Positions 7,903 through 39,643 of a DNA stretch of 43,955 bases are shown here, in pieces (position 1 is the stretch's first letter; each line of letters opens with the position of its first letter). Origin of the DNA: a virus. The stretch is taken from the UHGV virus genome UHGV-0152227; one strand, written 5' to 3'. The position numbers were made by a program, and so were the translations under genes. The notes beneath the pieces are model-generated. The model made no database searches and was not told the DNA's origin. It saw only the letters and a list, made by a program, of their open reading frames with translations.

Positions 7903-8160
7903 ATGCAGCAGTATCACTATCCACTGGAAGACGGATTTACCGAAAGGATTCACACGCCGGGAGGCGTCAGATCACTGGTGGAGGGATCGCACTTGATGAA
8001 ATTACTCCGGGATCTCGATAAGGATGGATTTAATGTCGATGGCCCACTTGCCGAACTGACTGCACTGATTAACTACGTCACCAGCTCACAGATGTCTATG
8101 CAGGATCTGCAAACACATCTCGACTATTGTGCCGAACAATTACGAAAACAAACCAGATAA
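7903..8160 (+). CDS. 85-aa stand-alone homologue of the antirepressor C-terminal domain
   Basis: GGAGA RBS 7 nt before the ATG at 7903. By hand alignment it is about 40 percent identical to the shared C-terminus of the 8476 and 41902 proteins (IH.P.GV..L.E.S.LM.LL..L..DG..V.G..AELT...Y...D.QTH..Y). Confidence 0.7.
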   Translation: MQQYHYPLEDGFTERIHTPGGVRSLVEGSHLMKLLRDLDKDGFNVDGPLAELTALINYVTSSQMSMQDLQTHLDYCAEQLRKQTR

Positions 8161-8191
8161 GGTTTGCAATTACCAAGTGGAGTGCTTATAT

Positions 8192-8238
8192 TTACCTTTG
8201 CGGTAAATTTACATCGCACTCCTCTTGTGCCATAGTAA
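8192..8238 (+). promoter_or_regulatory. operator plus promoter of the antirepressor-1 leader
   Basis: Perfect dyad TTACC TTTGC GGTAA (8192-8206), then TTTACA (8208-8213), 17-bp spacer, CATAGT (8231-8236). Confidence 0.5.
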
Positions 8239-8296
8239 TCGGGTACTGGCAAAATCCAGTGCCGGGATTGGCGTCCCGAGTTACTAAGTGGCGCAT

Positions 8297-8320
8297 ACCA
8301 CGCCAGACGTGGTTTTTTTA
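8297..8320 (+). terminator. rho-independent terminator/attenuator inside the antirepressor-1 leader
   Basis: Stem ACCACG (8297-8302) / CGTGGT (8308-8313), loop CCAGA, then a T6 run. Two more hairpins precede it (ACTGG..CCAGT and CGGGA..TCCCG). Confidence 0.7.
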
Positions 8321-8344
8321 TGCGTTAAGCACAGCTATATCCGA

Positions 8345-8420
8345 ATTATGGTGGGCTGGGCAGGGGTCCGAAAGGACGCCGGTACCACTTAGGCCGGTAC
8401 GCCAACCTTGTCCAGTTCAC
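8345..8420 (+). ncRNA. candidate c4-like antisense RNA 1 (boundaries approximate)
   Basis: ATGGTGG (8348-8354) is complementary to CCACCAT (8471-8477, includes the ant1 ATG). CCACTTAG (8385-8392) is complementary to CTAAGTGG (8457-8464, overlaps the SD). A closing helix pairs 8355-8362 with 8409-8416 (6 WC + 2 GU). No plausible ORF. Confidence 0.4.
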
Positions 8421-8475
8421 CACCAGTAATTGGCGTTGCGGTGGTGATTAAAATCACTAAGTGGAGATAACCACC

Positions 8476-9186
8476 ATGGCTAATGCTCAAACTGCCATCT
8501 TCAAATTTGAATCTGTTAACCCTATCCGTTCCATCATTATCGATGGCCAACCATGGTTTGTAGCCCAAGACGTTTGTAGTGCGCTGCGTATCCAAAACGT
8601 CACCCAAGCACTTGAAAAACTGGATGATGATGAAAGGTCTATGTTCAACATAGGGCATGAACATCGTGCAATTTTTGACAGCCGAGTAAAAGAGATCAAC
8701 ATCATCTCCGAGTCAGGCCTCTACACACTGATCCTCCGCTGCCGCGACGCAGTGACACCAGGCACTATCCCCTACCGCTTTCGTAAATGGGTTACAGGTG
8801 AGGTTCTTCCTCAGATCCGCCGCACCGGAAGTTACATTAAAAACTCGCTCCCGCAGGAAGAACGCATAAAGATGGTTGCCGACCAGGTTGCAAACGCCAC
8901 AGCATCAGCAGTGATGCAGGCAATGAAGATAGAGAACAAAACCTACAGCGCCCCACTGAAGCCCGGCTACCGTAGCCTGATTCATTCGCCGTCTGGTGTT
9001 CTCGGCCTGACGGAGAACTCACTGCTGATGAATCTGCTGAACCAGTTACAGGAAGACGGGCACGACGTATCGGGCGCGGCGGCGGAGCTGACCACCATGT
9101 TCTGCTACATCGTCGGTGTGAGCAAATGCCTGCGTGATATCCAGACGCACGCGGAGTACATCAACGACAAGGCTGGGTTCTTCTGA
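8476..9186 (+). CDS. antirepressor 1 (BRO-N N-terminal domain + shared C-terminal domain)
   Basis: BRO-N signature (FESVNPIRSIIIDGQPWFVAQDVCSALRIQN...SESGLYTLILR). GGAG RBS 9 nt before the ATG at 8476. Confidence 0.8.
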   Translation: MANAQTAIFKFESVNPIRSIIIDGQPWFVAQDVCSALRIQNVTQALEKLDDDERSMFNIGHEHRAIFDSRVKEINIISESGLYTLILRCRDAVTPGTIPYRFRKWVTGEVLPQIRRTGSYIKNSLPQEERIKMVADQVANATASAVMQAMKIENKTYSAPLKPGYRSLIHSPSGVLGLTENSLLMNLLNQLQEDGHDVSGAAAELTTMFCYIVGVSKCLRDIQTHAEYINDKAGFF

Positions 9187-9230: not shown

Positions 9231-9273
9231 TTGCAGACTGTGGGTGAATAGCGTACTATTACCTCAAGGGTAA
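9231..9273 (+). promoter_or_regulatory. promoter plus operator of the toxin-like pair
   Basis: TTGCAG (9231-9236), 17-bp spacer, TACTAT (9254-9259). Perfect dyad TTACC TCAAG GGTAA at 9259-9273, abutting the -10. Confidence 0.55.
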
Positions 9274-10324: not shown

Positions 10325-10885
10325 CTACATTGATATATGATTCATAAAGTAGCTTAAAGATTTACTTCCCAGAAAAGAAATTTCTTTTCCTGGATATGTC
10401 GCAATAATTGAGCATGACTTATCCCCGTTAGAGGTAACAAATCCTGAATAACCTACTTGTTCTTTACCATTTTGTTGCTTGGCTAAAAAGTAGAGGTAGC
10501 TTATCTTTTTGCCCTCTGGGTAAAACTCTGCCAAACCAGTATCGGTGATTGAATATTTTATTCTCCCGCCTTGAGTAACGTTTTCCATCTCAAGTTTAGC
10601 TATGTCTTTTCTGTTGTATTCAGCATTGATTTTCCTTTCGAAATCAATGTTGTTTTCAAATGAGTAGGAAGCAACAGTCTGAATAGATGGGAACACGTTT
10701 ATCTGGATGCCTCCACAGTCGGCACAGGTATAAAGGTATGAATCAGATGGAATCCCCATAAAAGAAAACTGAGTTACCTTAAATTTATCGCTATCTCCAA
10801 AGTATTGAAGTTCGCATTTAACATTTTGCCCTGCAAAAGAAAATGCAGACATCAATATTGAAACAAAAAATATAATTGCCTTCAT
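10325..10885 (-). CDS. AT-rich secreted/periplasmic protein of unknown function (186 aa)
   Basis: Signal peptide MKAIIFFVSILMSAFSFA|GQ. Its start lies 2 nt after the stop of the 850-aa ejection protein gene (TAATAATG), yet the base composition is clearly more AT-rich than the late operon. Confidence 0.75.
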   Translation of the reverse strand: MKAIIFFVSILMSAFSFAGQNVKCELQYFGDSDKFKVTQFSFMGIPSDSYLYTCADCGGIQINVFPSIQTVASYSFENNIDFERKINAEYNRKDIAKLEMENVTQGGRIKYSITDTGLAEFYPEGKKISYLYFLAKQQNGKEQVGYSGFVTSNGDKSCSIIATYPGKEISFLGSKSLSYFMNHISM

Positions 10886-18766: not shown

Positions 18767-21231
18767 CAGAATCCCCCAACAGTAAGGCGAGGAATAACGG
18801 CAAGAACAGACAGCGGCAACGGGTCAAGCTGACGGATTTTTACACGTCCGTTTTTGCCCCAGTTACTGTCCAGTTTCACTTCTACTTTTCCGGTAGCATC
18901 ATCAACAGGATCATCGTAGAACTCGAATTCACGCTGTGGATATTCGTACCATTTGCCGCCGGGCGTAGTCGCCCAGATGCCGCGACTGGCATTCACAACC
19001 AGAGTAACGGACGGGATCACCTGTTTTTTGTCCAGCAGCGTTTCCTGTCCGTTAATGTTGATATCCAGTGTTTCGAATTCAGCAGTTATTGGCAGGCCGA
19101 TGTGCACAACAGCCCCAGGTGATTCCAGCGTGACGGCACCTCCGGAAACCACTTTCTGTGGTTCCACGTTCGCATCAGAGAGAATGTTTACGGTCTGGCC
19201 TTCAAGATGAGACAGGCCTCCAAATGTCCGGCGCGCCATCTGCCAGTTCGTGGTGGCCACATTCCTGAGGGATGGCGGGACGTTCCTGTTAGCACGAACC
19301 ACTACTGCGGTATTGCTGGTTACAGAAATAATGTCGCAACGTAATTCTTTTGACACTTCATCGCCAGTATCAGGATCAGTTCCGGTATAAGGGAACTGTA
19401 GTTGCGCACCGACATCACTACTGGTGAAGTACGCACCACCAGAAACACTGATTGTATATTCCTCGCGGTAATCCCATTCGCCAGAACCACCAGTGATGAT
19501 CATCGTTCTGTCAGACGTATTTCTTCCATCATAGCTAAGGCCAGAATCAACAAAGAAAGCATCTTCATCGCTGGTAAATAAACGGCTGGACAGTCGCTCG
19601 ATGTATCTCACTGTTTGCCCGTTAACGGTTCGGTTAACGACGAAATACACCGCATCTTCATTGCCTTCGCTGATACTGCATGTGCTTTCATATTTTCCGG
19701 TACTGGATTGTGGTGCCCATGCAAAAACCTGCTGATCACGCAAATAGGTCATCACCAGTAATTTACCGTCATCACGAATGCAGAAGGCGCTGGAGTAAGG
19801 GACAATAGAGAAGCACCAGTCAACAATGCTGTGCTTCTGAAAAAGATGATTGGCAAGGATGGTCAGGTCGTTCCCCTGATAGCCGTCAACATCGAATGAG
19901 TAGGCCAGATCACGGACAACACTGCCTTTCTCCTGGACGAACAGAGCAATATTCGCCACGGCAATTGGTGGGACATTGCTCGAGCCATTTGATCCCTGAG
20001 AGCTGAATGCAAATGATGATGGGGTAAGCACTTTGTTCTGGTCGCCGGTGATGACGTACTCACCTCCGGAAGTCAGCGCCACCAGCGAACCGACATCAAT
20101 CAGGTGGCGGATCTCATTAACCTGACGCCCGGCATAGGTGTAGATAATTCTGTCGTCATCCTGCGTAGGATTGCTTTTGCCAAAATCCTTATAATCCCCG
20201 GTACGGCTGACCCAGATAGTCTGAGGGAACGCAGTCGATGCGGCGAAGTAAAGACGTTGTTGATAATAAACAACAGTGCCAGGATAACCATTAACACTGT
20301 TCCAGGCATATTTAGCCCATTTATAGCTGGCATTATCCTCGCCAACTACCTGCGAAGGGATATAGGAAATCACCTCGGCAGTTGCAGTAGTTCCATTTGC
20401 AGCAGTGATACGGGCAATGCCAAAACCACTGTGCAGATATTCCCACTCAATGCCAGTATCATCATCACCGGATCCGCCCCAGCCATCCCATGATGTGCCT
20501 TCTGTATGCGAAGGGCGCAAAGTGCCTGTTTTGCCTACTGTAACGGCGCGATAGTAGTTACTGTCTGCACGGCGAATATCGCCAATTGACGTACTCTTAC
20601 TGGTTTCCCATACCGGCACAGAATCCACTGCAGGCTGTTCCAGATAGAACAATTTGCCTACCTGCTCCGCGCCAAAAATAGAGGCGCTTGCCGTTAACGT
20701 AATTGTCCCGGTGCTGGCGCTGGCATAAACCGTCACTGACTCGTCAATATTGATATCTTCAAATGGTCCGTTCTTCGTTACCACATCAACCAGTTGCCAG
20801 TTGTCATGCGCATAGCGACGCAACTCTTTCGGGGGGTATGCCGGATGAACAAGCGTAAGCACGTCGGCGCTTTGCGTGAATTTAATTCGGAACAGATCGG
20901 CTTCAGTATATGGCGTGGAAATTTCATAAATAACATTGCTGCTGTTCAGCACCAACGCACCATCTTTGATAACGCGCATGTACTGGTGTCCGAACTCCAG
21001 AGCATAAGTCTGAACCGTCGAGAACTGGAACGGGATCAGGCGGCATTTCCGATTTGGGTATTTGGCGGCACCGACAAAACGCGTACCAGGTCGATTCTCA
21101 ACTCCGCCATACTGCCGCACGATAAAGTTATCGCACTTGCGCAATGCCACCTGGTACTTCGCCATACGACCGTACAACGACGGTCCAATCTCACCACCGG
21201 CAAAGCTGGGCTGGATCCAACTGATAGCCAT
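18766..21231 (-). CDS. tail tubular protein B (nozzle), T7 gp12-like
   Basis: 821-aa ORF directly after the tail tubular protein A gene, with the size and order typical of podoviruses. Confidence 0.8.
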   Translation of the reverse strand: MAISWIQPSFAGGEIGPSLYGRMAKYQVALRKCDNFIVRQYGGVENRPGTRFVGAAKYPNRKCRLIPFQFSTVQTYALEFGHQYMRVIKDGALVLNSSNVIYEISTPYTEADLFRIKFTQSADVLTLVHPAYPPKELRRYAHDNWQLVDVVTKNGPFEDINIDESVTVYASASTGTITLTASASIFGAEQVGKLFYLEQPAVDSVPVWETSKSTSIGDIRRADSNYYRAVTVGKTGTLRPSHTEGTSWDGWGGSGDDDTGIEWEYLHSGFGIARITAANGTTATAEVISYIPSQVVGEDNASYKWAKYAWNSVNGYPGTVVYYQQRLYFAASTAFPQTIWVSRTGDYKDFGKSNPTQDDDRIIYTYAGRQVNEIRHLIDVGSLVALTSGGEYVITGDQNKVLTPSSFAFSSQGSNGSSNVPPIAVANIALFVQEKGSVVRDLAYSFDVDGYQGNDLTILANHLFQKHSIVDWCFSIVPYSSAFCIRDDGKLLVMTYLRDQQVFAWAPQSSTGKYESTCSISEGNEDAVYFVVNRTVNGQTVRYIERLSSRLFTSDEDAFFVDSGLSYDGRNTSDRTMIITGGSGEWDYREEYTISVSGGAYFTSSDVGAQLQFPYTGTDPDTGDEVSKELRCDIISVTSNTAVVVRANRNVPPSLRNVATTNWQMARRTFGGLSHLEGQTVNILSDANVEPQKVVSGGAVTLESPGAVVHIGLPITAEFETLDININGQETLLDKKQVIPSVTLVVNASRGIWATTPGGKWYEYPQREFEFYDDPVDDATGKVEVKLDSNWGKNGRVKIRQLDPLPLSVLAVIPRLTVGGF

Positions 21232-22691: not shown

Positions 22692-22711
22692 GTGGGTCTG
22701 TTACGACCCAC
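22692..22711 (-). other. stem-loop directly downstream of the major capsid gene
   Basis: Stem GTGGGTC / GACCCAC with a 6-nt loop and no T-run. Likely stabilises or attenuates the mRNA. Confidence 0.5.
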
Positions 22712-26688: not shown

Positions 26689-26725
26689 TTGACATTTAAC
26701 GCACAAATTATTACCTTTAGGGTAA
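26689..26725 (+). promoter_or_regulatory. promoter plus operator of the tRNA/gp49 moron
   Basis: TTGACA (26689-26694). Perfect dyad TTACC TTTAG GGTAA (26711-26725) overlaps the expected -10 position. The -10 hexamer itself is poor (TACCTT). Confidence 0.45.
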
Positions 26726-27047: not shown

Positions 27048-27124
27048 GTGGCATTAGCTCAGTTGGACAGAGCAACCGCCTTCTAAGCGGTTGGTCGCAG
27101 GTTCGAATCCTGCATGCCACGCCA
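27048..27124 (+). tRNA. tRNA-Arg (anticodon UCU, reads AGA), CCA encoded
   Basis: A full cloverleaf folded by hand: acceptor GTGGCAT/ATGCCAC, D stem GCTC/GAGC, anticodon stem ACCGC/GCGGT with loop CT-TCT-AA, T arm GCAGG-TTCGAAT-CCTGC, discriminator G, then CCA. Confidence 0.92.
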
Positions 27125-29245: not shown

Positions 29246-29838
29246 TGATTACCATCCTGACGTTCTTTGAGTCGCTTCCTGGCTGCTGCTATGCGATCAG
29301 CAATTGTCACATTCACATTAACATCCAGACGTTCTTTGAACGCGTTGACATCAACATGCTTACCAATCAGCTCAAGGTTCTTCACCTTGTCAGGCCATTT
29401 AATTTTTTTGAGGATTGTCTCTATCGAATCCTCGTTCATGTTCATGATGGTCGATGACAGATCAAAGCCACTAAGCGTAGTGCGCCAGATTTTCGGCCAC
29501 TCGCGGATTGGCTTAAGGCTCCCATCGTCGTTGAGGATGTCGATCACATCCATCTGGTCGATCTCCACCAGGCGCATAAGAACGTAATCGGCACTGACGC
29601 GCATTCGTTTGTTGCGCTCCTCCATCAGCTCGGCAATCCGTTTTTGAATGCGTTCATCGCGCATCATGACACTGGCTTTAACTGCCGCTGTATTTGGGGA
29701 GAATCCTGCGTTAATCGCTGCCTGAGTCTGGTTTTCAGGCGTTTTGATGTATGACTGGCAATAAGCCTCCTGCATTGCTGTTAGTGGCTTAAATTGCGTT
29801 GATTTGCGTTTATAGGTTTTAGGTTCAGCAGGCATCAT
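29242..29838 (-). CDS. terS: terminase small subunit (Terminase_2-like)
   Basis: KPLTAMQEAYCQSYIKTPENQTQAAINAGFSPNTA is a typical TerS HTH. The start is set at the ATG-ATG pair (29838/29835) after a GGTGG RBS. The 26-codon upstream extension in the ORF track spans a terminator and operator repeats. Confidence 0.8.
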   Translation of the reverse strand: MMPAEPKTYKRKSTQFKPLTAMQEAYCQSYIKTPENQTQAAINAGFSPNTAAVKASVMMRDERIQKRIAELMEERNKRMRVSADYVLMRLVEIDQMDVIDILNDDGSLKPIREWPKIWRTTLSGFDLSSTIMNMNEDSIETILKKIKWPDKVKNLELIGKHVDVNAFKERLDVNVNVTIADRIAAARKRLKERQDGNQ

Positions 29839-29870
29839 AACCACCGTGGTAATAGTTACCGTTGTGGTAA
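29838..29870. promoter_or_regulatory. two operator dyads directly upstream of, and overlapping, the terS start
   Basis: Perfect TTACC GTTGT GGTAA (29856-29870) and 9/10 TAACC ACCGT GGTAA (29838-29852), centres 18 bp apart. On the minus strand this reads as a tandem of GGTA(A)CTATTACCAC. Confidence 0.55.
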
Positions 29871-33951: not shown

Positions 33952-34296
33952 TCAGAACTCTTCGATGTTCCAGCCGCCACCTGCTTTCTTTGGTTTAACC
34001 GTTACCCCGATGATGCGGAACGGATACTGATCTGCTGCGACTTTGGTTTTCACCCTGGCGTCGTCGGTCCAGAAACCTTTCACCTCGTGTAATTCCATCT
34101 CGCCGGTGGTGAGCATCACCGCGAAATCTGGCGTATAGAACGTGTTATCAGCTAACCGCAGCTTGATACCCTCGAATCGATACCAGGCGATTTCCCCTGC
34201 ACGTTTACGCAGCTCAAGGTGCTGGCAATACGCAGATTCTGTTTTGTTCATCTGGCCTGTTTTGAGTCGACCAAGAGCCTGTATCTGTTTTCTCAT
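33952..34296 (-). CDS. DUF1064-type PD-(D/E)XK nuclease (putative Holliday-junction resolvase)
   Basis: The pattern YTPDF....ELHEVKG is the DUF1064 catalytic core. Confidence 0.7.
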   Translation of the reverse strand: MRKQIQALGRLKTGQMNKTESAYCQHLELRKRAGEIAWYRFEGIKLRLADNTFYTPDFAVMLTTGEMELHEVKGFWTDDARVKTKVAADQYPFRIIGVTVKPKKAGGGWNIEEF

Positions 34297-34298
34297 GA

Positions 34299-34376
34299 TT
34301 TACCTCTAAGGTAATTAAAAACCACATAAGACACGAAATCAATAGAGCTTAGAATATTTTGTTACCCACCAGGTAA
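34299..34376. promoter_or_regulatory. two perfect operator dyads plus an internal minus-strand promoter
   Basis: TTACC TCTAA GGTAA (34299-34313; overlaps the GAGG RBS of the 33952-34296 gene) and TTACC CACCA GGTAA (34362-34376), centres 63 bp apart. Minus strand: TTGATT, 17-bp spacer, TTTAAT, directly abutting the first dyad. Confidence 0.55.
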
Positions 34377-36263: not shown

Positions 36264-36278
36264 TTACCTTTGAGGTAC
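36264..36278. promoter_or_regulatory. isolated near-consensus operator downstream of the cro-like gene terminator
   Basis: TTACC TTTGA GGTAC (9/10). Confidence 0.45.
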
Positions 36279-36287
36279 GAATAGATA

Positions 36288-36312
36288 TGAAAAGACCGCC
36301 GGGTGGCGGTCT
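36288..36312 (-). terminator. terminator after the cro-like gene
   Basis: 8-bp stem AGACCGCC / GGCGGTCT, loop GGGT. The minus strand continues TTTTC. Confidence 0.65.
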
Positions 36313-36333
36313 ACAGAGGGTTGTAGCTGGATA

Positions 36334-36564
36334 TCATGAGTAGAAGAAGTATGCCAGTTCTGCTTTTGAGCGCAGCCATTGTCTTGTTTTACAGGCTTTA
36401 AAAAGCCCATTCATCAATACTTTACCTGGCATTTTGCGCTTACCTGTTAAGTGAGTCTGGATATAGTGACTCGTCGTTCCGGCTTCCTGTGCGAAGGCTT
36501 CACGCTCATCCGGAGTAAGTGCAAGCCAGTGCTTTTTGAAATCGAAATGTCCGTTATCGCTCAT
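36334..36564 (-). CDS. Cro-like HTH regulator (76 aa)
   Basis: HTH AGTTSHYIQTHLTGKRKMP. It is divergent from the repressor gene across the operator cluster. Confidence 0.7.
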   Translation of the reverse strand: MSDNGHFDFKKHWLALTPDEREAFAQEAGTTSHYIQTHLTGKRKMPGKVLMNGLFKACKTRQWLRSKAELAYFFYS

Positions 36565-36596
36565 AGCTATTGCCTGATATTTATTTCAGATAATAA

Positions 36597-36663
36597 ATAT
36601 TCACCCATAAGGTAACAAAAATCAAGGATAGTTACCTATGAGGTGCATTTACCTGTTGGGTAA
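36597..36663. promoter_or_regulatory. immunity operator cluster (3 dyads) with the leftward cro promoter
   Basis: Dyads TCACC CATAA GGTAA (36601-36615), TTACC TATGA GGTGC (36632-36646) and TTACC TGTTG GGTAA (36649-36663). Minus-strand promoter: TTGATT (36620-36625), 17-bp spacer, GAATAT (36597-36602), overlapping the first dyad. Confidence 0.65.
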
Positions 36664-36718
36664 TATTGCTTTAAATTGAATCATCTACTGATTCATATAT
36701 GAGGCGATTTTCCAGAAA

Positions 36719-37303
36719 ATGAAAAGTATCCAGGACGTCCGCAGGCAAAATCTCAACGACTTGATCGACCGTGAATTCAATGGTGTTCAGACGCGGATGG
36801 CAGAAAAACTTGGAACTCAGGCAAATCTGGTAAACCGCTGGGCTCTTGGCAAGAAGGTTATCGGCGACCAGGTTGCACGAAAAATTGAAGCTGCCGCCAA
36901 TAAACCCCGTAACTGGCTTGATATCGATCGCTCGCTTTCTCAGGAAGGTTTTCAGCCTGTCGGCCCGAGCGATATAGGTCAGCTGGCGGCTCACAACCTG
37001 GAACGCTGGATGAGCGAAAGCCGCGACCTTTCAACGCAGGGAAAACTACACCGCGCATCCGGCGTCGCCCAGGTGACAATCAGCCGCCTGTTAAACAATG
37101 AGGTCAGCGTTTCCATTTCCACCCTGGAGAATGTTGCATCCGCATTCGGGCGTCACGGCTATGAATTACTGATTCACCCGCACGACCCTGCGACCATCAA
37201 CTATGATCGCTCGCGCTACGCATTGTTACCCGAAACCGAGAAAGCAAAGATCGAAAGTTACATTGAATTTGTCATCAACCAGAACGAAAAAAACAAACAA
37301 TAA
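36719..37303 (+). CDS. prophage repressor with two tandem HTH_XRE domains and no S24 peptidase domain
   Basis: HTH 1 is QTRMAEKLGTQANLVNRWALGKK...PRNWLD. HTH 2 is QGKLHRASGVAQVTISRLLNNEVSVSISTLENVASAFG. No Ser/Lys autocleavage module was recognisable. The RBS is weak or absent. Confidence 0.75.
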   Translation: MKSIQDVRRQNLNDLIDREFNGVQTRMAEKLGTQANLVNRWALGKKVIGDQVARKIEAAANKPRNWLDIDRSLSQEGFQPVGPSDIGQLAAHNLERWMSESRDLSTQGKLHRASGVAQVTISRLLNNEVSVSISTLENVASAFGRHGYELLIHPHDPATINYDRSRYALLPETEKAKIESYIEFVINQNEKNKQ

Positions 37304-37323
37304 AATCATATTTTTCAGTAAGT

Positions 37324-37348
37324 AAGCCGCCTTCTGGCGGCTTTTTTA
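37324..37348 (+). terminator. rho-independent terminator of the repressor gene
   Basis: Stem AAGCCGCC / GGCGGCTT, loop TTCT, then a T-run. Confidence 0.85.
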
Positions 37349-37360
37349 TTGCCTATTCGA

Positions 37361-37437
37361 TTACCTAATGGGTAATTTTTTTAACTCATATCTATTGACA
37401 TCAAACCAGATACGCATAATTATTACCTCAACGGTAA
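37361..37437 (+). promoter_or_regulatory. early-right promoter flanked by two perfect operators
   Basis: TTACC TAATG GGTAA (37361-37375); TTGACA (37395-37400), 17-bp spacer, AATTAT (37418-37423); TTACC TCAAC GGTAA (37423-37437). Confidence 0.6.
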
Positions 37438-37456
37438 CAGACCGAGGTAACAAGTT

Positions 37457-37611: not shown

Positions 37612-37911
37612 ATGAACGTTAATCAGCAGAAAAATCTTCAAAAAATCATGCTGGCATTCGACAAGGACTACCGCCTGTCAGAACAGCTATATGACCGACA
37701 AGTTGAACTGATCGAGAGCATCCGGCTTCATCAACTGGCCTCAACTTTCGACGCTGTAACAGGTAAAGGCGTTCGCCAGGAAGTACTGGAGGCCGCTAAA
37801 GACAGTCCAGAGTTCGAAGAACTGATGGATTCCTACCGGCGAGAGGCAATGGCAATTATCGCCCGCTGGGATCTGGCGGATCAGCTTGATGGGCAGAGGG
37901 ACGCGGCATGA
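37612..37911 (+). CDS. hypothetical protein (99 aa)
   Basis: GGGAGGG RBS before the ATG at 37612. Helical and acidic. ATGA overlap with the next gene. Confidence 0.7.
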   Translation: MNVNQQKNLQKIMLAFDKDYRLSEQLYDRQVELIESIRLHQLASTFDAVTGKGVRQEVLEAAKDSPEFEELMDSYRREAMAIIARWDLADQLDGQRDAA

Positions 37912-38729
37912 AACCGGGAATTTATTTCGACATCAGCAACGAAGACTACCACGCCGGTGACGGCGTGAGTAAGTCGCAACTGGACATGGTTGCCAAGAAT
38001 CCGGCGCTTCTTAAATGGGTTCAGGCAGCACCAGAAGACGAAGAGAAAAAGTCTGCACTGGATATGGGAACCGCATTGCACTGTCTGCTTCTGGAGCCTG
38101 GAGAGTTCGACAAACGCTTCATTGTTTCACCGAAATTCGATCGTCGGACGAAACAAGGTAAAGCTGACGAAGAGGCATTTCTTCGTGATATTGCGGATAT
38201 GGGGATTTCGGTACTTGATGCAGAGCAGTGGCGGAAACTGGAGCTGATGCGTGATAGCGCAATGGCTCACCCGGCGGCACGCTGGATGTTGGAAGCTCCT
38301 GGTTACTGCGAAGCATCAATGTACTGGAACGATGAAGAGACTGGTGAGTTGTGCCGCATTCGTCCAGACAAATGGCTGAACGAGCACAACGTGATCGTCG
38401 ACGTGAAAAAGGTTGCAGATATGGACCGTTTTGCACGTCACATCGAGGAATTCCGCTACCACGTGCAGGACGCAATGTACCGCGAAGGCGCAATGAGGGT
38501 TACTGGTCAGCCGCATGGTTTTTTCTTTCTTGCCGTGAGCGAAAGCATTGATTGTGGTCGGTATCCGGTACGCGTGTTCGGGCTGGATGCGCCGGATGTC
38601 GATGCCGGGCACGCTCTGTTCCGCCGGGATCTGAATACCTATCACGAATGCCGCATCAGCGATGAATGGGGCGGCGTGGAAATTATTAAACGCCCTGAGT
38701 GGGCACGCAAACAGGATATGTACGTATGA
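37908..38729 (+). CDS. PD-(D/E)XK exonuclease, RecE (exonuclease VIII) C-terminal-domain-like
   Basis: The patterns YHAGDGVSKSQL, GTALHCLLLEP and IVDVKK are typical of RecE/PDDEXK_1 nucleases. It is paired with recT. Confidence 0.75.
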   Translation: MKPGIYFDISNEDYHAGDGVSKSQLDMVAKNPALLKWVQAAPEDEEKKSALDMGTALHCLLLEPGEFDKRFIVSPKFDRRTKQGKADEEAFLRDIADMGISVLDAEQWRKLELMRDSAMAHPAARWMLEAPGYCEASMYWNDEETGELCRIRPDKWLNEHNVIVDVKKVADMDRFARHIEEFRYHVQDAMYREGAMRVTGQPHGFFFLAVSESIDCGRYPVRVFGLDAPDVDAGHALFRRDLNTYHECRISDEWGGVEIIKRPEWARKQDMYV

Positions 38730-39643
38730 GCAACGAAATTGCAATCACCAATGATGTGTTGGCTATTCGGGGAATCGATGAAGTTACATGGAGCGCTCTG
38801 AAAAACAGTATTTACCCTGGGGCAAAAGATGAATCGGTAATGATGGCAGTCGATTACTGCCGGGCGCGTCAACTCGATCCTCTTCTTAAGCCGGTACACC
38901 TGGTACCAATGAGTGTTAAAGACTCGAAGAGTGGAAAGAATGAATGGCGCGACGTGGTCATGCCTGGCATTGGACTTTATCGCATTCAGGCCTACCGTTC
39001 CGGCGATTACGCAGGCGCTAATGAACCTGAGTTCGGTCCAGATGTAACACAAACGCTTTCAGGAGTGGAGGTTACCTTCCCTCAGTGGTGTAAGTACACC
39101 GTCAGCAAGCGAATGGCAAGCGGGGAAATCGTAGAGTTTAGCGCCAAAGAATACTGGATTGAGAACTATGCAACTGGGGGGCGTGACACATCGGCACCAA
39201 ATGCCATGTGGAAAAAGCGCCCTTATGCGCAGTTGGCAAAATGCGCAGAGGCACAGGCATTACGTAAAGCATGGCCGGAGATTGGTCAACAAGCCACAGC
39301 TGAGGAAATGGAAGGTAAATATATCGACTCACCTGACATTATTGAACGTGACGTAACTCCAAGAAGTCAGGCAAAGCACGGCACAGCATCCAGCATGAAC
39401 AGTCTGATCAACGCTAAAACAGTGAAAAAGCCTGATGAGCAAACGCGTAAAGCGGATAGCCGTGATCCAGAAGAAATGCTGATGGCCTTTACCAGCGCAG
39501 CGATGAATTACAGCACTGTCTCCGAACTGGATAAGGCTTACAAATACATTGCACAAAAACTTTCAGATGATGACGAACTGCTGGCAAAAGCCACCGACGT
39601 TTACAGCGTTCGTCGGGAAGAATTAAACGAAACATCTATGTAA
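38726..39643 (+). CDS. recT: RecT-family single-strand annealing recombinase
   Basis: MMAVDYCRARQLDPLLKPVHLVPM and RPYAQLAKCAEAQALRKAWPE are RecT signatures. The start at 38726 forms an ATGA overlap. Confidence 0.85.
   Translation: MSNEIAITNDVLAIRGIDEVTWSALKNSIYPGAKDESVMMAVDYCRARQLDPLLKPVHLVPMSVKDSKSGKNEWRDVVMPGIGLYRIQAYRSGDYAGANEPEFGPDVTQTLSGVEVTFPQWCKYTVSKRMASGEIVEFSAKEYWIENYATGGRDTSAPNAMWKKRPYAQLAKCAEAQALRKAWPEIGQQATAEEMEGKYIDSPDIIERDVTPRSQAKHGTASSMNSLINAKTVKKPDEQTRKADSRDPEEMLMAFTSAAMNYSTVSELDKAYKYIAQKLSDDDELLAKATDVYSVRREELNETSM

Follow-up and report, generated by a model that had tools for sequence, protein, structure and literature searches.

The Rep/Ant antirepression system of phage SPC32H was reportedly worked out by Kim & Ryu (J Virol, 2013) and Kim et al. 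(PNAS, 2016), with structures deposited as PDB 5D4Z and 5D50. We compared with this system the repressor locus (positions 36264-37450) of the virus genome UHGV-0152227, analyzed as one stretch of 43,955 nucleotides (nt; the window), for which a first-pass annotation made from the raw sequence had proposed a non-cleavable repressor switched off by antirepressors rather than by RecA-stimulated autocleavage. Among papers citing this work, PMC9986798 divides SPC32H Rep into an N-terminal DNA-binding domain, a middle dimerization domain, and a C-terminal domain of about the last 40 residues that serves both tetramerization and antirepressor binding. According to PMC9638917, Rep binds DNA as a tetramer, which is dismantled by tetrameric Ant, and PMC7380047 describes the system as SOS-responsive, with LexA cleavage permitting Ant synthesis. 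The same logic, in which SOS is relayed to a non-cleavable repressor by a small LexA-repressed antirepressor, is known for the repressors of Gifsy-1 and Gifsy-3 and for CI/Tum of coliphage 186 (PMC3121763, PMC7380047). These differ in repressor architecture and oligomeric mechanism; the likeness is one of logic, and no sequence kinship is claimed.

The window is a Uetakevirus, a phiV10/epsilon15-like podophage, and represents a common type of E. coli prophage. Over about 1.5 kb at the immunity region it is 98-99% identical to the E. coli Uetakevirus podophages phiV10, TL-2011b, vB_EcoP_ZX5 (ZX5), and others, and about 77% identical to Enterobacter phage Tyrion. The remainder matches the same Uetakevirus phages, with the gene order of epsilon15 and phiV10, and this exact immunity region is carried by 540 of 5,426 complete E. 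coli genomes. The locus is very probably the immunity region of a phiV10-type Uetakevirus, most likely working as an SPC32H-type Rep/Ant switch. It shares with SPC32H the genus, the gene order, homology along the full length of Rep, a closely similar Ant, the place of the LexA box before ant, and the half-sites and layout of the operators. It differs in the lower identity of Rep, in having two operators instead of three at the early promoter next to rep, and in two additions that the SPC32H genome lacks, namely an isrK-C4-BroN-Ant operon immediately following ant and, close to int, an Xcc1-ORF6N-Ant cassette.

The 194-amino-acid (aa) open reading frame (ORF) that had been taken for the repressor gene is present, and its product is 100% identical to phiV10 p40 and ZX5 ORF21. 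The phiV10 record mentions "two helix-turn-helix motifs" and the terminator, and in ZX5, overexpression of this identical repressor abolished free phage (PMC9782041). Searched with phmmer, residues 1-190 align with residues 2-197 of the SPC32H Rep chain PDB 5D50_A (E 4e-42), and the protein also matches the 92-198 fragment in PDB 5D4Z. The identity to SPC32H Rep, 43% overall, is unevenly spread: the N-terminal domain reaches 53% and the C-terminal domain 47%, but the middle domain only 34%, and the NLVNRW motif of the recognition helix is invariant. Because the homology to a solved structure covers the full length, it answers the question of the domain content. The absence of a LexA/S24-type module, as first supposed, is borne out by the domain search: neither Pfam (E<=0.1) nor PHROGs yielded a Peptidase_S24 match. 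Cysteine is altogether absent from the 194-aa translation, as are Ala-Gly and Cys-Gly dipeptides, and the three non-protease domains of SPC32H Rep account for its whole length. A cryptic RecA-stimulated self-cleavage of the lambda CI/LexA kind, for which nothing was found beyond the general precedent among lambdoid repressors, is thus extremely improbable and close to refuted. With that family the locus shares its genetic layout: the repressor and cro-like genes are divergent and have three operators, and an early promoter on the repressor side is operated separately. It departs from it in a repressor without S24 domain or cleavage site and in the use of one 15-bp (base pair) operator type throughout the genome.

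The first-pass annotation had also described two XRE-type helix-turn-helix (HTH) units in tandem. Both are detected as folds, firmly for residues 106-147 (Pfam HTH_3, E 1.2e-9) and more weakly at the N-terminus, where a YdaS-type match (E 3e-4) and an HTH_3 match obtained by scanning residues 1-74 alone (E 0.012) both fall below the Pfam cut-offs. Two DNA readers are not implied, since the second HTH-like unit of SPC32H Rep is described as a dimerization domain, and "double-HTH" is therefore best taken as a fold label. If both units did read DNA, each would bind either a portion of the operator or some second site. The stronger Pfam score of the middle unit would agree with this, as would the naming of the C-terminal HTH as the DNA-binding domain by the ZX5 authors. 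However, PMC9986798 gives the DNA-binding role to the N-terminal domain of SPC32H Rep and dimerization to the middle one, and the half-sites are the same where the N-terminal recognition helix is invariant although the middle domain has drifted so far. Tandem reading therefore appears quite improbable. In the characterized homologue only the N-terminal HTH reads DNA, and the identity pattern of the present Rep, together with its unchanged half-sites, fits the same arrangement.

Sites of the form TTACC-N5-GGTAA with at most one mismatch occur 14 times in the window compared to 0.71 expected (about 20-fold), a count that none of 100 shuffles reached. The same half-sites and dispersed layout are found in SPC32H and in epsilon15 (repressor gp38), whose GenBank record already marks dispersed repressor-binding sites. 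In alignments of five phages (the window phage, Tyrion, Klebsiella phage BUCT711, epsilon15, and SPC32H), the operators O1-O3, the TTGATT -35 element of the cro-like promoter, OL1, the TTGACA element of the early promoter, and OL2 have kept their positions while the flanking sequence drifted. Three features read from the raw sequence are recovered, namely a doubly operated rightward promoter, now seen to be flanked by two perfect operators, a terminator belonging to rep itself, and a minus-strand cro-like promoter overlapped by the first of three operators, its -10 hexamer being weak. The promoter scan also returned TTGTTA-17-TATTAT (36618..36590) as an alternative cro-like promoter, which was rejected as the primary one since its -35 is not conserved, in contrast to the invariant TTGATT. 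Several operator pairs are spaced by exactly 62 bp from center to center, or about six helical turns: 37361/37423 and 34300/34362 in the window, 33604/33666 and 35972/36034 in SPC32H, and also in epsilon15. Such a spacing would be compatible with a single Rep tetramer spanning both operators of a pair. An operator-like site at 10509, which is intragenic and without AT flanks, is treated as a chance occurrence. Among the genes examined, none was recognized as coding for an N- or Q-type antiterminator; instead, Rep operators precede most gene blocks.

The 85-aa protein encoded by ant is very probably the cognate SOS-controlled antirepressor, although it is the larger Bro-N gene that usually carries the label antirepressor. 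As in SPC32H, ant adjoins the tail-fiber gene, away from rep. The first reading had called for a search for LexA boxes near the ant promoters, and its outcome is divided: a well-matched box precedes the 85-aa gene, in register with those of SPC32H and Tyrion, and none was found by the CTGT-N8-ACAG search at the two larger genes. Overall this motif occurs 11 times compared to 14.8 expected. Two perfect occurrences, at 22698 and 27240, have 9 and 12 matches to the 20-nt LexA consensus and are treated as chance. The deposited genomes of the temperate SPC32H and the virulent SPC32N differ at two of 38,689 bases (positions 19960 and 20147). One of these changes (G>T) turns the CAG half of the ant LexA box into AAG, and the other lies near the start of the tail-spike gene. 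Independent genetic evidence for control of the lysis-lysogeny decision by this box thus comes from SPC32N. Across the Salmonella, Enterobacter, and E. coli members, Ant is 84-88% identical while Rep is just 42-43% identical, and because Ant is conserved where Rep has diverged, cross-induction between heterologous prophages looks possible.

By analogy with SPC32H, Rep would occupy its operators as a tetramer: three in the intergenic region that separates rep from the divergent cro-like gene, two around the early promoter, and about nine further ones at other promoters genome-wide. Because the operators are dispersed at promoters, each early or late transcription unit would be shut individually. 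Upon DNA damage, cleavage of the host LexA would free the box over the ant promoter, and the Ant protein then made would bind the C-terminal domains of Rep and take the tetramer apart, so that Rep would leave the DNA. Repression by Rep, the binding of Ant to Rep with dismantling of the tetramer, and the dependence of the temperate or virulent lifestyle on the integrity of the LexA box are established in SPC32H and ZX5. The window itself contains homologues of Rep and Ant along with a LexA box, promoters, operators, and terminators that are conserved, and its Rep has no S24 domain. From this we infer that its Ant would inactivate its own Rep, probably leaving the latter uncleaved. Antirepressor-driven, SOS-triggered induction is strongly supported, because the Rep and Ant homologues, the LexA box at ant, and the altered box of SPC32N concur, and the original proposal of a non-cleavable repressor relieved by an antirepressor is supported likewise, the homologous SPC32H pair having been demonstrated experimentally to work in this way. 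Several points weigh on the other side. For the proteins of this phage, the evidence comes from sequence; Rep is just 43% identical to the characterized Rep, and its middle domain just 34%; the ant promoter hexamers are weak and were missed by the consensus promoter scan; and induction could be due in part, or even mainly, to the two further Ant-domain proteins.

These two proteins explain why three Ant-type genes, two antirepressor genes and a third with an Ant domain, had been counted at first, since both are fusions that share phrog_450 with the 85-aa Ant. A Bro-N domain in one and an ORF6N domain in the other precede a C-terminal domain of about 80 aa that is 40-42% identical to Ant (phrog_450, E ~4e-36). 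Among the ea/nin-type genes at 29.9-34.3 kb, we found no further Ant or KilA domains, just Ead/Ea22, DUF551, DUF7739, and DUF1064. Each fusion gene is preceded by an RNA of the c4 type. Between ant and the Bro-N gene, an isrK RNA and a C4 RNA follow each other in tandem. The C4 hairpin loop 8385-8392 is complementary to 8457-8464, the Shine-Dalgarno (SD) sequence of the Bro-N gene, and the single-stranded segment 8399-8405 is complementary to 8430-8436, 25 nt upstream, a complementarity reached by none of 1000 shuffles. For the ORF6N gene, the geometry is the same, the complementarity being between loop positions 41826-41832 of the Xcc1 RNA and the SD region 41884-41890, but the statistics are weak (104 of 1000 shuffles). 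The RNA region is overlapped by short ORFs alone; in ZX5 a 37-aa "ash family protein" is annotated there, a coding sequence (CDS) that overlaps the C4 RNA and may be a miscalled RNA gene.

The Bro-N module recalls the immI region of P1/P7 (c4 antisense RNA-icd-ant), where a C4 RNA lies on the same strand directly 5' of an antirepressor-type gene, with loops complementary to the region of its ribosome-binding site. It also resembles isrK-orf45-anrP of Gifsy-1 (PMC4825925), in which an isrK RNA with its terminator is followed by an antirepressor-type gene. Unlike these systems, it is an accessory to a LexA/Ant switch, is placed under a Rep operator, and encodes a protein that ends in an SPC32H-Ant-type domain.

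When considering whether the Bro-N and/or ORF6N fusions, gated by their c4-type RNAs and not by LexA, could be the main inducers, with the 85-aa Ant secondary or redundant, both the Ant domain of the fusions and the Rfam-significant RNAs with loops predicted to pair with the ribosome-binding sites are relevant. Furthermore, overexpression of ZX5 ORF4, near-identical to the Bro-N fusion, reduced lysogens about 1000-fold, from 1e9 to 1e6 (PMC9782041). On the other hand, neither gene has a LexA box, the 85-aa protein resembles the validated Ant much more closely than their Ant domains do, and the promoter of the Bro-N operon is itself under a Rep operator, for which reason this operon should fire only once derepression has begun. 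SPC32H, moreover, lacks both modules and is nevertheless SOS-inducible through the small Ant alone (PMC7380047). We thus consider it unlikely that the fusions act as main inducers and retain the LexA-controlled Ant in this role. Possible, though less likely than not, is a switch with three inputs, in which the LexA-gated Ant would be joined by the two fusions reusing the Rep-binding Ant domain, both c4-gated and one of them also Rep-operated. They might form an SOS-independent amplifier or anti-immunity device acting on the resident Rep, or act in trans on Rep proteins of other Uetakevirus-type prophages, whether co-resident or superinfecting. Such action in trans would be made plausible by the conservation of Ant (about 88%) among phages with only about 43% identity between their Reps.

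How rep itself is expressed is less clear-cut. A weak or absent ribosome-binding site had been proposed, and the SD-like element of rep is indeed limited to GAGG at 13-14 nt from the ATG, while in most of the other window genes tested the SD is at 4-8 nt. The cro-like gene likewise has a very weak SD (-2.5 kcal/mol), so that neither gene of the switch is well provided for the initiation of translation. Leaderless translation has a precedent in lambda cI transcribed from PRM. A leaderless rep mRNA, its first nucleotide being the A of the start codon (ATG at 36719), would be in line with the lack of any SD at 5-10 nt from the ATG in the five related phages and with the TACAAT located 4 nt before the ATG in the Salmonella relatives. 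In the window, however, the sequence GATTTTCCAGAAA-ATG offers no correctly placed -10-like hexamer, the promoter scan returned no plus-strand promoter between O3 and the ATG of rep, and if the transcript has a leader, the GAGG could function as a poor SD. The manual candidates TAATAT at 36661-36666 and CATATA or TATATG at about 36694-36701 were dropped for want of a credible -35. The leaderless idea has no support beyond the weak SD, and we rate it as unlikely.

The mechanism is already known for the genus from the genetics and structure of SPC32H and is partly annotated in public records, and the deduction made from the raw sequence was right. As the biology is established, the value of the present assignment is mainly one of annotation. 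The RefSeq name of the repressor among the records listed is just "helix-turn-helix domain-containing protein", and the 85-aa Ant is a "hypothetical protein" in most phage records examined, including those of phiV10, ZX5, and epsilon15. The only experimental paper on the identical repressor, the ZX5 study (PMC9782041), assigns antirepression to the Bro-N protein alone, which it tested, and overlooked the LexA-controlled 85-aa Ant. The Rep/Ant assignment predicts that antibiotics triggering SOS would induce these prophages via LexA and Ant and not via repressor cleavage. The less described part of the system consists of the two larger fusions, each behind a c4-type antisense RNA; as possible extra inputs to the switch, they offer one modest lead that could repay experiments.

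Table 1. Elements of the predicted Rep/Ant switch and associated features in the window.
Feature	Coordinates	Strand	Remarks
Rep operator 5' of ant promoter	7812..7826		conserved in SPC32H and Tyrion
Predicted LexA box TACTGTATAAATATACAGTT	7864..7883		18/20 to consensus; 20 nt 5' of ant
ant	7903..8160	+	85 aa; 88% identical to SPC32H Ant (PDB 5D50_E), E 4e-47
Promoter of isrK operon, TTGCAA-17-TATATT	8164..8206	+	perfect Rep operator 8192-8206 at -10/start site
isrK-family small RNA	8243..8319	+	RF01394, 63.5 bits (gathering 50); terminator 8297-8313
C4 antisense RNA	8344..8427	+	RF01695, 66 bits (gathering 45); 48 nt before Bro-N-Ant start codon
Bro-N + Ant-domain fusion gene	8476..9186	+	236 aa; C-terminus 42% identical to Ant
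Rep operator	9259..9273		perfect; before phrog_6685/YafO-like gene pair
Rep operator	26711..26725		perfect; before gp3-like/portal block
Two adjacent Rep operators	29838..29870		at 29838 and 29856; at small-terminase gene start; homologous site annotated in epsilon15
Rep operator pair	34300..34376		at 34300 and 34362; perfect, 62 bp apart; before DUF1064/ea-type block
Rep operator TTACCTTTGAGGTAC	36264..36278		1 mismatch; 3' of cro-like gene terminator, 5' of gp40-like/replication genes
Intrinsic terminator of cro-like gene	36293..36312	-	also annotated in phiV10
cro-like gene	36334..36564	-	76 aa; phrog_35 "transcriptional repressor", E 5.6e-13; no Pfam match
Candidate cro-like promoter, TTGATT-17-GAATAT	36597..36625	-	-35 invariant in five phages; -10 weak
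Operator O1 TCACCCATAAGGTAA	36601..36615		overlaps spacer and -10 of cro-like promoter
Operator O2 TTACCTATGAGGTGC	36632..36646		2 mismatches; position conserved
Operator O3 TTACCTGTTGGGTAA	36649..36663		perfect
rep	36719..37303	+	194 aa; domain roles by homology to SPC32H Rep
Rep domains	residues ~1-72; ~89-152; ~153-190		HTH DNA-binding; HTH_3-like dimerization; tetramerization/Ant-binding; by homology, approximate boundaries chosen here
Intrinsic terminator of rep	37324..37343	+	followed by T-run; found by scan, same element annotated in phiV10
Operator OL1	37361..37375		perfect; 19 nt 5' of early promoter -35
Early promoter, TTGACA-17-AATTAT	37395..37423	+	10/12 matches; serves gp37-like/gp36-like/recE-like/recT/alpA-like operon
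Operator OL2	37423..37437		perfect; overlaps -10 end and start site; 62 bp from OL1
sRNA-Xcc1 (c4-like) RNA	41771..41860	+	5' of ORF6N-Ant gene; Rfam-significant
ORF6N + Ant-domain fusion gene	41902..42621	+	239 aa

Additional observations concern the surroundings of these features. The ORF6N fusion belongs to a self-contained cassette adjoining int (41330-42621), with two near-identical TTGACA promoters (~41338 and ~41657), a small basic ORF (~41409-41654), a terminator hairpin, and the sRNA-Xcc1; neither a Rep operator nor a LexA box was found in it. Two genes have an operator directly adjoining their start codon (34296-34314 and 29835-29852), and at 34300 the GGTAA half-site doubles as the SD (GAGGTAAATCATG, minus strand). 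The segment 9259-10033 contains, after its operator, a 59-aa phrog_6685 gene and a borderline match to the YafO toxin (25.8 bits, cut-off 25), and may encode a Rep-repressed toxin-like pair. A tRNA-Arg gene (anticodon TCT) is located at 27048-27124, with the portal-side operator on one side and an N4 gp49-like gene on the other. Finally, the operon 3' of rep codes for a PDDEXK/RecE-like protein, RecT, and an AlpA-family protein; recE-like and recT (37908-39643) are separate ORFs that overlap at 38699-38729, where the phiV10 record has a single recET fusion CDS.

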